DNA of 63,152 bases, counting the filler, from Diploschistes diacapsis (taxonomy: Eukaryota), in assembly GCA_023645945.1 (NCBI GenBank). It is 7 parts of 7 records of this genome, joined end to end, with 100 filler letters (N's around TTAATTAATTAA, not from the genome) between each part and the next. Parts side by side here need not be neighbours in the genome. Positions count along the whole stretch, not along the records: positions 58,132 to 60,592 come from JALAIB010002200.1; 6 more parts are not named here. One strand, 5' to 3'. This document shows, in pieces, positions 25,227 through 63,152 of this stretch. Every line of letters begins with the position of its first letter. The stretch's first letter is position 1. The position numbers and the translations under genes were made by a program. Under the pieces are notes generated by a model that was not told the origin of the DNA, made no database searches, and saw only the letters and a program-made list of their open reading frames with translations.

Positions 25227-26126
25227 GTCATACCGAACGAAATCAAACGAGTTAATTATCGATTCAAATTATTAAAAGACGTAAAGATTTATTTAATATT
25301 TTATTTCCGATATTTCGAATTTATATATCTAGATATACCGTTATAAGAAACCTTCTATTTCGAATTAAATAACGAGAACGAATACGAAGTCGAAAAGATT
25401 CTGGATAATAACCTTAAAAGATTTTTTATTAAATAAAAAGGATATCCGTCGGATTAAAATACATAAAAACCCTTATTAAACCTAAATAATTACCGAAATA
25501 AAATTAAAGAATATCGGAGACTCATTAAAACGAACGGAATGTCTTAATTATCGTCCGCATCTTTAAACACTTCAATCGTAAGCCAAAAATCGAATAATTT
25601 ATTTAAAGATCTATTAACGCGATAATATCTCCCGCTATAAGATCCTCGCCGTTATCCTTTAATTATTAAATAAGATAACGAGTTTTTATGATCGTTTCCT
25701 TTTACGCCAATTCTTAAATCTTACGCTTTTTATTAATTCATGATTATATCTTAAAAAATTCTTTAAATTTTTAATTTCTATCCCGTTTTAAAAACAATAA
25801 TTTCGTAACCTATTAAGTACGAACCTTATTTAACGGGAACTACGAGCGAAAGAAACAAGATCTTTTTACACGGATATATTTAGAATACTTATTTAAAATC
25901 AACGGTAATATTAAAAGGAATCATAAAAAAAATAAACAAGAATTATAGATTATTTTAGAAAAATATCGAAAAAATTCAATTTCGTCGATAAAACGCAAAC
26001 GTTTCTTTCTTCTATTACGATATATGATCTTACGTTAACGACGAATACAGGAAACTATTATAAAAATATTAAATAAGGACACGATTTCGTTTATATAATT
26101 AAACCTTTTAACGAATTATCGGATCG
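25227..26126 (+). mobile_element. RIP-degraded Gypsy chromovirus (family A, copy 1): integrase C-terminus, chromodomain and antisense ORF relic
   Basis: Reads ENEYEVEKILD...KRFFIK*KGYP (chromodomain); near-identical to 28280-28520; AT-rich with many TAA/TAG. Confidence 0.9.
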
Positions 26127-27788: not shown

Positions 27789-29684
27789 TATCACATATAG
27801 ATAGATCGAGTTGTGAGAATTCATAGATAACTTATCTAAAAAAAATCATCAGCGATAAGGACAAGCTCTTTACCTCGGGATATTAGAAAATCATGATGGA
27901 AGCGTTCGGCACGAAACTGAAACATTTAAACGCTTATTATTTATAAATAGATGGTTAAATAAAAAGAATAAATTAGATTCTCGAATAATATTTACGGCAT
28001 TACGTCAATTAGAATATGGACAATTAGGTTAAACTATTATCGAACGCCGAATACTATCTTAACAACAGATACAGAGAAGTTAAGAAGATTCAGAATATAT
28101 AATCACTTAATAATAAGATATTAGAAAATGCTAAGAGATTAGCGATCTTAAGGAAGAATCTTTAGTTAAAAAAGGGAGATAAGGTTTATTTATATACGGA
28201 TAATTTCAGGACACGTAAATCCTTTAAGAAATTAGATCACGTCAAAATCGGACCCTTCTTTATCAATAAACAACCCGTCGTGCTAAACGAAATTAAACGA
28301 ATTATCTACCGATTCAAGTTACTAAAGGACGCGAAAATTTATTCAATGTTTTACTTATAATACCTCGAACCTATATATCTAAATATATCGTTATAAGAAA
28401 CCTTTTATTTCGAATTAGATAACGAAAACGAATACGAAATCAAGAAGATTCTGGATAATAACCCTAAAAGGTTTCTTATCAAATGGAAAGAGTACCCGCC
28501 GGAATAGAACACGTAAGAATCTATCAAGAATTTATAAAAGATAAAAAAAAGAAAGTTAGGCTTAAAAGGCCACTAACGAAAGAAAAACATATATACGATA
28601 TTTTTTATATTATATTTATATTTTCGAGGACTTCGATAATAAATTAAGGGTCGAATAATTTTATTTAAAGGTTCGTTAATGCGAAAGTATTTTTTATTGA
28701 TAAATTTTCGCCGTCGTCTTTTAATTATTAAATAAAATAACGAGTCTTCGTGATCGTTTCCTTCTACGTTAATTCTTGAACCTTACGTTTTCTATCAATT
28801 CTTATTTATATCTTAAAAAGTTCTTTAAATTTCTAATCGCGATCCCGTTTTAAAGATAATAATTTCGTAGTTTATTAATTACGGATCCTGTCCAACGAAA
28901 ACTACGAGCGAAAGAAATAAGGTCTTTTTAAACGGATATATTCAAAACATTTATTAGAATCAACGTCAATACCAGAAGGAATTATGAAGTAAAAATGATC
29001 GGAAACTAAATAAGAATCATAGATTATTTTAAGAAAATATCGAAGGGATTCGATTTTATTGGCGAGACGGAAACGTTTTTTTTTTTTATTGCGATATATG
29101 ATTTTGCGTTAACGACGAGTTGAAGGATCTATTGTCGAGAAACGGGAAGAAAATTAATTTCGTTTATATAATTAGATCTTTCGGTTTATTGTCGGGCCGA
29201 CAATTCCGAAGGAGGGGGATAATATTACGATCTAGGTTACTGGCCTATCACGTTCTAATTACTTACTAAAAAACACTCACTGACGTTCGGGTCACGTGAG
29301 TTGTTGGAACGAGCGGCGCCGTTTTATGCGCTCGGTAGGAGCAATGGGCGGCGCTCTTTCTATTTTATGAAAGCTATTATCGGCGCTTCCTTCGCTTTGG
29401 TAAAGCATAGGAAGCTGGCGTTGGTGTTTTATAGGAAACTTAGATATATAATCTTTTTTTTAGACATACCTTTATTCGGTATATTTATTTTTATAAACAT
29501 CTTAAATTATTATTCGGGATTAATTTATATTCGTTACTTCTATCACCTTAGAGCCTTCTTTCTAGAGATAGTCTAAAACCTATGATTGTTCTATCTTCTT
29601 TTCCTGCCATACTCCTCTTCTAACAGAGACCAAACCTATCTTGATCCTACTCGTGTATACCTTGTATAGATAGAGATCATAACA
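27789..29684 (+). mobile_element. RIP-degraded Gypsy family A copy 2: partial integrase, chromodomain, antisense ORF, PPT (29208-29219) and 3' LTR (29223-29684)
   Basis: KKLDHVKIGPFFI (GPF motif), ENEYEIKKILD..FLIKWKEYP, PPT gaaggaggggga, LTR T(G>A)TTACGATC...GAGATCATAACA. Confidence 0.92.
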
Positions 29685-58131: not shown

Positions 58132-58642
58132 ATAAACAAATCTACCCGGTTATAAAATAAATATTTAATACAAACATTATTTACGGCTAGAATTAAATAA
58201 CATACTCGAAACGGAACAAGCCCTTTCTATCTCCTTTATAAAATAAAACTTTACCTACCGAACGATCCGAATAAGATACGTTTTAATAAACTCGAACCGA
58301 ATTTAACAAAATAATTCAATCGAATTTAAAAAATTCATACCGTACGCGCGATAACTAATAAAAAATTAATAAACAAGGCTATTAAACATTAAATAATACG
58401 AAATAATACCGTAAAAAAACACGACTTTTAAATAAAATAATACGTATTATTACACAATAAAAATCATAAAAAATTCAAATCGAATTAATACGACCCGTTT
58501 AAAATTTTATAAATTCATATTTTAAAAACGTACGCCCTAGAAAAACCAAATAAAAAGATCTTAAAGAATCTAATTCACGATAATAAACTCGTACGCGCTT
58601 ACGACTATAAAAATTTAAATAAAACGTAATAAAGCATAAAAG
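58132..58642 (+). mobile_element. Heavily RIP-degraded Gypsy integrase C-terminal fragment
   Basis: Reads KKFKSN*YDPFKI, consistent with a RIP-mutated WYGPF motif; extreme A-richness. Confidence 0.65.
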
Positions 58643-58979
58643 TGTTATGATCTCTATCTATACAAGGTATACACGAGTAGGATCAAGGTGGGTTTGGTCT
58701 CTGTTAGAAGAGGAGTGTGGCAGGAGAAGAAGATAAAGAAGTTATAGGTCTTAAACTCCCTCTAAAAAGAAGGTTTTAAAATGATAGAAATAACGAATAT
58801 AAATTAATCCCGAATAATAATTAAAGATATTTATAAAAATAAACACGTTTTTTTTTACGAAGATAGAGTCGTGTTTATATATAATTAACTCGCTCGCCGT
58901 TTATCGCAAGTTTAACGAACGGTGCCCTCAAGATTCGCCGCTTATAAGAATAAGCGCGATCATCGAGCGGTGGCGAAAG
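58643..58979 (-). mobile_element. Family A LTR interrupted by a second family A element
   Basis: Starts TGTTATGATCTC, follows 61179-61514, then breaks at another TGTTATGATCTC. Confidence 0.88.
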
Positions 58980-60592
58980 TGTTATGATCTCTATCTATAC
59001 AAGGTATACACGAGTAGGATCAAGGTGGGTTTGGTTTCTGTTAGAAGAGGAGTGTGGTAGGAGAAGAAGATAGATCAGTTATAGGTCTTGGACTGTTTCT
59101 AGAAAGAAGGTTCTTTAATGATAGAAGTAACGAATATAAATTAATCCCGAATAATAACTAAGGATATTTATAAAAGTAAACACGTTTTAGATTTATAAAG
59201 GCCATAACGACGTTCTTATATAATTAACAGCTCTTTTAATAAAATAAATAAATAAATGAATAAAATTACCGTTCTTTTTTTCTATTTACGATCGGGTAGA
59301 ATAATCTTCCAGACCTTTTATTCATTACGTGACCCGCGTCACCCTAATTGGACTATATATAAAGAATGGTTGGGAAGTGCCCGACTAATTATTGCGTGTT
59401 AAGTACTACCGATTAATACTTTGGATCGTAATATTATTTCTTTTTTTTAGCTTTGTCGGCCCGATAAGCACCGAAAAATTAATATAAGTATTAAATAAAA
59501 GAGAATCTTAAGTCGTAAGACAGCGATGTTTTTTTTATCTTCGATATAAAAGAAACGTTTAGGTTTTATTATTCGTTTTCGGGGTTTCCTGGACATATTA
59601 TTTTATAATTATTGTTTATTCTTTTACGATTATATTAGGATGTTTTCGATCTCGGTAAAGTATGCTCGTTATATTGAGTCCGATAGGAAGGATTGCGTTT
59701 TTATTATATGAAAAGTAATTGAACGGACCATCTTTTCGAAAAGAAACGAGATCGAGAAAGATGAGAAGCTTGTTGACGAGGATAATGAATAAAAAAAAGA
59801 ATTAAAAAAATAACTTCGTGAGGTTAAAGATTGTCGTTTTTAGCGTAAACGTCGTATTCGTTGTAATCGAAAGGTTCTTAAACTAACAGAAGATCGCGCG
59901 GACGCGTAAGCGAAATATTTAACAAAGGAGTTGGATTTAGAATCGTCCGAGGCGTACGCGAACGCTTAAGAAGGCGTACTTTCGGAGTTCGATTTAGAAT
60001 TATTAAAACTAGCCGTAATGTCGCCGGTTTAGTTAAATTAATTTTTAAAGGATAAGGTTCTTATCCTTCTAGATTAAATAAGTCTGCGATATTCCTTTAT
60101 CTTATTTCTATAATTGCTCAAATTTTCTAAAGATTCCCACGTGTTTTATTCTGATGGGTATCCTTTTTACTTAACGAGGAATCTTTTGGGGCTATTATCT
60201 AGAATTCTTTTAACTTTATATTCTTTTTCGTTATTTGGTTCGAAATAGAAGGTTTCTTATAACGGTATGTTTAGATATGCTGATTCGAGGTATCGGGAAT
60301 GAAATATTGGGTAAACTTTCGCGTTTTTTGGTAATTTAAGTCGATAATTAACTCGTTTGATTTCGTTCGGTATAACGGATTGTTTATCGATAAAAAAAAG
60401 TCCGATCTTGACGTAATCGAATTTTTTAAAAGGTTTACGTATTTTGAGGTTATCCGTGTATAAATAAATCTTATCTTTTTTTTTTAATTGAGGATTCTTT
60501 TTTAAGATTCTTATTCTTTTAATATCGTTTAATGATTCGTTGTTTAGCGATTGTGTATTTTAAACTTTCTTAATTTTTTTGTGTTTGTTATT
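58980..60592 (-). mobile_element. Gypsy family A copy 3: 3' LTR 58980-59433, PPT, antisense ORF 59526-60077, chromodomain and integrase end
   Basis: Reverse complement of 60070-60592 matches ~28065-28540; LTR ends conserved. Confidence 0.92.
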
Positions 60593-60894
60593 NNNNNNNN
60601 NNNNNNNNNNNNNNNNNNNNNNNNNNNNNNNNNNNNTTAATTAATTAANNNNNNNNNNNNNNNNNNNNNNNNNNNNNNNNNNNNNNNNNNNNCAATAGGA
60701 TCCACTAAGCCCTATAGACTTGCACTACTCCCGATTAGGATTAGCAGGAACCCCAGTAGGTTCAGCTGAACTGAACCTGAACCTGAGGTTCAGCTGAACT
60801 TCCCAGCCATGCATTCTGCCTGCCTGCTCAACACTAATTAATAAAAGTTAAGTAATAGATTGGCCGTATTCTGGCCAAGTATAAGCAAAACATT

Positions 60895-61178: not shown

Positions 61179-63152
61179 TGTTATGATCTCTATCTATACA
61201 AGGTATACACGAGTAGGATCAAGGTGGGTTTAGTCTCTATTAGAAGAGGAGTGTGGTAGAAAAAGAAGATAGAGTAATTATAAATCTTGGACTGTTTCTA
61301 GAAAGAAGGTTCTAAAATGATAGAAGTAACGAATATTATTAATCCCGAATAATAACTTAAGATATTTATAAAAATGAATACGCCTTCTTCCACGAAAATA
61401 AAGTCGTGCTTATATATAATTAACTCGCTCGTCGTTCATCGTAAATTTAACGAACGATACCCTCGAGGCTCGCCGTTCACGAAAATAAACGCGATTATCG
61501 AGCGATAACGAAAGCTTACTCGCCGCTTACGAGAATAAACGCGAGCAGTAAACGTATCACGTGACCCTTAATCCCGTAATTGATTTATATATAAAACTAA
61601 AACATATTAAATCTAATATTTAGATCGTAATATTATTCCTTTTTTTTAATATTATCGGCCCGATAATTCGTCGAAAGGTCTAACATAAGTATTAAATAAA
61701 AGAAAATTTTAAGTCGTAAGATAACGATGTTTTTTTTAACTTCTCGTAACCGATCCGTCGAATAAATCCAACTTTCTCGTTCTATCGCTCGTCATAAAAT
61801 CCTTATTATTTCTTCTTATAAATATTATTTTTTTAACGATAAGTCCTGTTTCGTTATATCATTTAATTCTAAAATCCTAAAATATTCGGAATATATACGC
61901 CGTAATCGTTCTTACGTAAAAATATTATAGATTCGCCTAAAACGGACATAAGATGTATTAAAACGGTTTATATAAAAAAATATTGATCGGTTTCTTAAAC
62001 TTACTCGTCGTATCGAGCGGAATAAACTTTTTTTATAAAAAATATAAACCCGTACCGATATAAAGATAGAATGTTTAACGGAATCATTGATTACGGAAGG
62101 TGAAAACCTAGGCCGTATTATGATTAATATATCGATATTTAAGGCGGAGATTCTCGACGGAAATCCATCTTTTTTCGCTGATGACCCCGAGGAATTACCT
62201 TCGTTGAGTAGGGGCGTCGTTACTTAGCTTTCTTGATTAGTTCGTTAGTCTTAAATTGACCAATTTATTGCCCAAGGAGTTTTCTTATATTTCTCTAGCT
62301 TGCCCTTATAGTTAATTAGGTTCGTTGAGGGTTCTCACGTGTCCTAATCTTCCGGGTATCCTTTCTACCTTACTCGGAACTTTCCATCCTTATGGTTTAT
62401 AATCCTTTCGATTTCGTATTCGTTTTCGTTATCTGATTTAAAATAAAAGGTTGTTTACAATGGGATGTCTTAATATACTGACTTAAGGTGTTTAATATAA
62501 AACATTGGGTGAACTTTCGCGTCCTTTAGTAATTTAAGTCGATAGCTGACTTTTTCGGTTTCGTCGGATATTAAAGGTTACTTATCGACAAGAAAGGGTC
62601 CGACTTTGACGTGATCTAGCTTCTTAAAGGGTCTACGTGTCCTAAGATTGTCCGTATATAGGTAAACCTTATCCCCCTTTTTCAGCTAAAGATTCTTCCT
62701 TAAAACCTTAATTTTATTAATATCATTCAATGCTTCGTTATTAAATAATATCGTATTCTAAATCTTCCTAATTTCTCTATATTTATTATTAAGATAATAT
62801 TCGGCGTTAAATAGTAATTTTATTTAGTTATTTATGTTCTAGTTAACGTAATACCGTAAATATTATTCTAAAGTTTAGTTCATTCTTTCTGTTTAACCAT
62901 CTGTTTATAGGTGGTAGACGTTTGAATGTTTCAGCTTCGTGTCGAACGCCTCTATTATGGTTTTCTAATATCCTAAAGTAAAGAACTTGTTTCTATTATT
63001 AATGATCTTTTCTGGATATTTATGAATAATAAACGTTTAAATACTTTAATTTCGTGTCGAACGCCTTTATTATAATTTTCTAATATTTTAACGTAAAAAG
63101 CTTATTTTTATTATTAATGATTTCGTTTAAATGTCCATGAATTCTTATAATT
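61179..63152 (-). mobile_element. Gypsy family A copy 4: 3' LTR 61179-61632, PPT, antisense ORF 61727-62227, chromodomain, integrase part
   Basis: Minus strand reads KKLDHVKVGPFLV and DNENEYEIERI..*KGYP; LTR ends conserved. Confidence 0.92.

Follow-up and report, generated by a model that had tools for sequence, protein, structure and literature searches.

Does the reading frame that runs opposite to pol at one end of a decayed retrotransposon of Diploschistes diacapsis (assembly GCA_023645945.1) mark a former gene, and what might its protein have done? The window, by which we mean the whole analysed stretch of 63,152 nucleotides, is a chain of contigs separated by linkers of N, and contigs side by side in it need not be neighbours in the genome. 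The copy under study, here called type A, lies on a 2.46-kb contig of 30% GC (G000:C1337, JALAIB010002200.1; window positions 58132-60592) that bears decay of the kind left by repeat-induced point mutation (RIP), with a C-to-T loss that peaks at CpA (0.62) and is smallest at CpG (0.31). Judged from the two parts by which it is known here, the pol end and a long terminal repeat (LTR), the host element is a fungal Ty3/gypsy chromovirus. Only the last 0.5 kb of pol is present, the contig ending there; its C-terminus matches Pfam Chromo above cut-off (37.6 bits vs. 25.1, E = 2e-9) and SH3_Tf2-1 below cut-off (E = 3.5e-4). The antisense open reading frame (ORF) starts 93 nt inward from the LTR boundary (59433 to 59526) on the + strand and stands tail-to-tail with the pol end:

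58980..59433, - strand: 3′ LTR of the type-A element, its end fixed by copies diverging at the same base into unrelated flanks
59325..59362, + strand: candidate outward promoter in the unique 3′ region (U3) of the LTR, from motif tallies: a TCACGTG-type box (59325-59331) and TATATATAA (59354-59362)
59414..59542, + strand: block common to types A and B (LTR terminus, polypurine tract, palindrome, leader and ATG), 85% identical, 96% as purine/pyrimidine
59526..60077, + strand: type-A antisense ORF, RIP-dead (183 codons plus a TAA stop, nine internal stops)
59604..59711, + strand: six-cysteine cluster C27, C30, C36, C46, C49, C57 plus W62, spaced x5/x9/x7, from codon tallies; the spacing also occurs in seven intact relatives
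59709..59972, + strand: long helix, probably a coiled coil (residues 62-149), predicted on the intact relative P0001
60080..60592, - strand: pol end with an SH3-like domain and a chromodomain (about 60083-60205), from Pfam matches

Evidence for a former gene

The first-pass annotation had proposed a 184-codon frame with two unmutated cysteines and the spacing C-x2-C-x5-C-x9-C-x2-C-x7-C, and our reading agrees: the frame holds 183 codons plus the stop, Cys30 is TGT and Cys57 is TGC, and the spacing, continued by x4-W, is borne out by the frame. Codon tallies cover 30 type-A copies (from 40 matches, 149 candidates), across which the frame is preserved. At sites 27, 30, 36, 46, 49 and 57, TGY stands in 3, 7, 10, 9, 7 and 22 of the 30 copies, the remainder being TAY throughout except for one AAT, and no copy keeps more than four of its cysteines. 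Codon 62, claimed to be a tryptophan lost from TGG, is TGA in the window copy and TGG in 6/30. Of the nine internal stops of the window copy, eight have a Gln or Trp codon as their counterpart in other copies, and the ninth, at codon 106, is shared by every one of the 29 copies that cover it. Every copy seen in this assembly is RIP-dead (all 87 matches to the intact relative P0024 carry stops), and the window copy has no present function. A second type-A subgroup (L019-L023, L025, L026, L028-L030), 74-80% identical to the window copy, differs somewhat in U3 and has residues of its own near the N-terminus.

Intact relatives exist elsewhere. A HMMER scan with 18 type-A copies gave 23 matches; P0001 (183 aa, intact) has exactly the type-A motif, and its predicted helix over residues 62-149 fits the helix that had been proposed after the cysteine cluster. 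P0024, also intact, matches the damaged window copy at 56% identity across 167 aa, and its residue is present in at least one type-A copy at 145 of 171 sites. The motif is borne by 70 of the 112 gathered proteins (62 with x6/x6 spacing, 7 with the x5/x7 of type A, 1 with x7/x6), a count that includes redundant members; the thinned set of 41 divides into 34, 6 and 1. Across a 47-row alignment, truncated rows included, five of the six cysteines are at least 90% conserved, with C46, C49 and C57 invariant. The Atlas clusters are from ascomycetes, and one of them bears the automatic name Zn(2)-C6; none of the names listed for the gathered homologues was informative for the family, and none was BRTN. 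Of 21 pattern matches in metagenome contigs, five are relatives: three stand tail-to-tail with a chromodomain pol end, and two have an LTR and a polypurine tract upstream, their contigs ending within the ORF. Other relatives, with identities to P0024 of about 30-35%, lie at G000:C1693:327-731 and C1277:1876-2223 and among weaker matches; two are also matched by the L062 protein, and the whole set may represent additional cassette types.

The window also holds two other versions, types B and C:

61179..61632, - strand: 3′ LTR of the type-B element, its U3 with a 26-nt repeat and GCTCR motifs
61727..62227, + strand: type-B antisense ORF (x6/x11/x6), end approximate, from spacing, copy tallies and profile match
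28620..29102, - strand: type-C antisense ORF (x6/x13/x6), limits approximate, cluster start 29021, from profile match

The annotation had given the ORF at 61727 the same cysteine register as type A, and this did not hold: the spacings are 5/9/7 in A and 2-6-11-2-6 (6/11/6) in B, and the first B site is TGY in 0/29 copies. Type C is spaced 2-6-13-2-6. A fourth copy, of type C, lies at 25590-26110 (- strand; G000:C1332, L100), faces a pol end and has a frameshift in its cysteine region; at 62915-63121, in the type-B element, a 92-nt pol stretch occurs twice, 115 nt apart, at 82% identity.

The claimed homology of the two ORFs, by comparison, was upheld at the protein level. Profile-profile alignment of A against B gave a probability of 95%, a value that RIP bias could inflate; we therefore built an independent profile that left out type A and used only 27 intact x6/x6 relatives, and ran it on 18 frames. 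It matched the proposed frames (A, E = 1e-8; B, 3e-11; C, 2.5e-12), and the next frame reached 0.41. For the selection test and for distances we counted transversions, since RIP makes none. Type A has an omega of about 0.39 (p=4e-4; 22 transversions synonymous, 55 not) and type B of 0.36 (p=0.017); the other type-A frames range from 0.62 to 1.83, none significant. Neither the cysteine part of type A alone (0.65, p=0.27) nor the pol control (0.6, p=0.14) was significant.

One could suppose that the tyrosine spacing arose by chance in AT-rich debris of RIP, or that the ORF is a fragment captured from a host transcription factor and has no function, as RIP produces tyrosine codons and the window copy keeps just two of six cysteines among nine stops. 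The same motif in intact relatives, a profile match specific to the proposed A, B and C frames, the selection signal and a position conserved in unrelated elements refute both forms of this idea, which we find hardly credible. The claim that protein-level selection acted before RIP is supported by intact relatives with all six cysteines and the tryptophan, and by a synonymous transversion excess in this frame only: the antisense ORF was a real gene.

Three versions of U3 and ORF on one backbone

The type-A LTR has TG...CA ends, and the pyrimidine run adjoining it on the + strand is the polypurine tract (59434-59448, purines on the - strand). Its inner part, 58980-59184, putatively the repeat and unique 5′ region (R-U5), is common to types A, B and C, and the putative U3, 59185-59413, is specific to type. 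A palindrome core, CGGCCCG (59457-59463), is kept in 23/28 A and 25/27 B copies. Likeness of A and B at the DNA level, said to be limited to the start region, does run from 59414 to 59542 (vs. 61614-61743, 85%) and ends just past the ATG.

Between types we compared purines vs. pyrimidines only. Agreement among A, B and C is 0.91-0.96 in the pol end and 0.98-0.99 in the inner LTR; in the block of LTR end, polypurine tract and leader it is 0.96 for A and B and 0.84-0.85 with C. In the ORF it falls to 0.60-0.65, no higher than with the unrelated L061 and L062 (0.60-0.71), and in U3 to about shuffle level; the ORF is thus far more divergent than the chromodomain end, the comparison that the first-pass annotation had called for. 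The claim of a common pol backbone has firmer support than the first-pass annotation could have seen: over 13 A, 9 B and 5 C loci (measured on best local alignments, a choice biased towards well-matching parts), pol-end transversion distances between types (2.9% A-B, 3.6% A-C, 3.0% B-C) equal those within (3.2% A-A, 2.6% B-B). U3 type equals ORF type in 56/56 assignable loci (24 A, 26 B, 6 C) out of 64 with room upstream, eight lacking a U3 match; the 56 represent three lineages, not 56 events. At least three deeply divergent ORF versions occur in this genome; all sit on one backbone, and each is tied to a U3 of its own.

The annotation was right that these are divergent homologous ORFs on a common backbone; as to their origin, an exchange of old cassettes fits the data better than variants diverging in place. 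In favour of ORF and U3 having evolved where they stand, much faster than pol and R-U5, is the intermediate look of L062 and L065, which show milder divergence: they agree at 87% in R-U5, 84% in the polypurine-tract block and 49% of ORF residues, and their U3 can be aligned in part. The ORFs, however, differ at 35-40% of purine/pyrimidine sites while pol is no more distant between types than within them; the ORF transversion distance within type A is just 2.3%, under purifying selection; and A is nearer to P0024, a protein from outside this genome, than to either B or C, joining it in the starred x5/x7 clade of a 31-row tree in which B and C are long unplaced branches. We consider in-place evolution improbable, and we think it likely that old 3′ cassettes of U3 plus ORF were exchanged onto a common pol/R-U5 backbone by strand transfer and reverse-transcriptase template switching between co-packaged RNAs. 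First-strand transfer between such RNAs joins the R-U5 of one to the U3 of the other (in the portion of PMC6894440 consulted), so that a single additional switch, made at the pol end, would carry U3, polypurine tract and ORF together. Under exchange of cassettes, the common polypurine-tract block needs further switches or constraint.

The six-cysteine protein and its possible role

The antisense protein, 160-200 aa long, has a basic N-terminal helix, a six-cysteine head, a long helix and an acidic tail (the sequence observed, the fold predicted). The head is probably Zn2Cys6-like with a long coiled coil after it, as modelled: the best matches of the predicted fold are Hap1, Pho7 and Gal4, and, as in Gal4-type factors (PF00172), six cysteines including two CxxC pairs precede a helix. 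PF00172 is spaced C-x2-C-x6-C-x5-12-C-x2-C-x6-8-C, which most relatives follow (62/70 are x6/x6) but type A, with x5 between Cys2 and Cys3, does not. A search with PF00172 found no match for RIP copies or intact A-type proteins; 6/16 members of alignment A6 do match (best E = 1.9e-4), and L062 scores 11.4 bits against a cut-off of 21. Unlike Zn2Cys6 factors, the antisense protein is short, has an extra N-terminal helix and is carried by an element; type A is x5/x7, and the family has no lysine at the position of Gal4-Lys18.

We put together an accessory antisense gene, exchange of cassettes and a regulator of the element's own U3 as one reading, with a probability of about 0.48. An accessory gene lies antisense to gag-pol between the chromodomain and the 3′ LTR of the chromovirus; its transcription probably began at an outward promoter in the U3 of the 3′ LTR, where the candidate TATA element is kept in 25/26 copies and the TCACGTG-type box is exact in 12/25, with a RIP-degenerate form in 25/25. 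The protein would probably dimerise, act on the U3 of the element that encodes it and set transcription, a step we hold tentatively, at slightly less than even odds, and U3 and ORF would travel together because of that action. Bolder, and in our view less likely than not, is the reading in which fungal chromoviruses supply a Zn2Cys6-derived transcription factor of their own, swapped on a common backbone with matching U3 sites as an allelic regulator-plus-site cassette, the x5/x7 clade being a re-spaced cluster with its own specificity; if so, one element clan could run several independent regulatory circuits.

Against a DNA-binding regulator stands the absence of lysine at the Gal4-Lys18 position from all 41 thinned motifs, which fits an accessory factor without sequence-specific DNA binding, its zinc head and coiled coil binding the element's own Gag or integrase or else a protein of the host, such as a factor in silencing or restriction or, if the antisense protein is a decoy, host zinc-cluster factors; host conflict would keep diverse versions, and U3 would be carried by linkage. 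Asp or Glu at the third loop position in 7/7 A-type proteins, the deep diversity of the ORF on a uniform backbone and an 88-residue helix also favour such a factor, Gal4-type dimer helices being shorter. The lysine is replaced in known factors, by His in Put3 and Asn in Pho7 (PMC6265462), and the equivalent position has Asn in 8 and His in 3 of the 41 motifs, His, Asn and Arg together making 14/41. In type A, 12/30 copies have a His codon at Cys2+4, the equivalence being unsure because the loop is shortened. The C5-C6 loop is basic in 31/41 motifs, and U3 diverges along with the ORF, a pattern repeated in the pair L062 and L065. With these points against it, we see protein binding as a possible but doubtful account.

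Related layouts and surrounding sequence

The layout itself is already known: Botrytis Boty elements have an antisense gene, brtn, between pol and the 3′ LTR (passages of PMC8365987, PMC7264820, PMC4227169 and PMC5987419). Compared by these layout descriptions only, both are extra antisense genes of fungal elements whose pol ends in a chromodomain, whereas the passages citing BRTN mention neither a zinc cluster nor exchangeable versions linked to U3. In PMC8365987, two supplementary files gave no brtn match, and its Figure S1, outside that search, may name a domain; zinc, GAL4, antisense and Boty do not occur in PMC3248453. Our literature searches turned up no antisense extra ORF of an LTR retrotransposon described as having a zinc cluster. 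Plant elements with an antisense ORF of the same position and orientation (aORF-3R: Grande gene23, RIRE2, Retand, PvRetro13), of unknown function in the sections of PMC7264820 drawn on here, have SMC and Transposase_28 domains there and no reported six-Cys cluster; for Grande, the same sections report an own promoter and nuclear location. What antisense extra ORFs do for LTR retrotransposons is treated there as an open question. Here a recognisable head domain, intact natural members and three versions paired with three U3s on one backbone come together, and the three pairs are a ready cognate vs. non-cognate test of element-made regulators.

Retroviral antisense genes, such as that of HBZ, the antisense protein of HTLV, offer an analogy that implies no kinship: the unit starts at the 3′ LTR and might regulate its own element. 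An antisense promoter of HTLV is cited in the part of PMC7264820 used here.

Around the type-A copy, insertions are nested. An integrase-like reading of another element, RIP-damaged and identified by eye only (58132-58642, + strand), is interrupted by a truncated LTR, which then adjoins the type-A LTR:

58643..58979, - strand: truncated type-B LTR, directly adjoining the type-A LTR (85% over 337 nt vs. 61179-61514)

A more divergent LTR piece of the same family (76-78%) lies at a contig start (32921-33126). A GC-richer stretch with GTTCAGCTGAAC palindromes (60693-60831) is 95% identical in L050 and similar in L015 and L025, in the latter inside an insertion at the LTR terminus; it is possibly a small mobile element spared by RIP.
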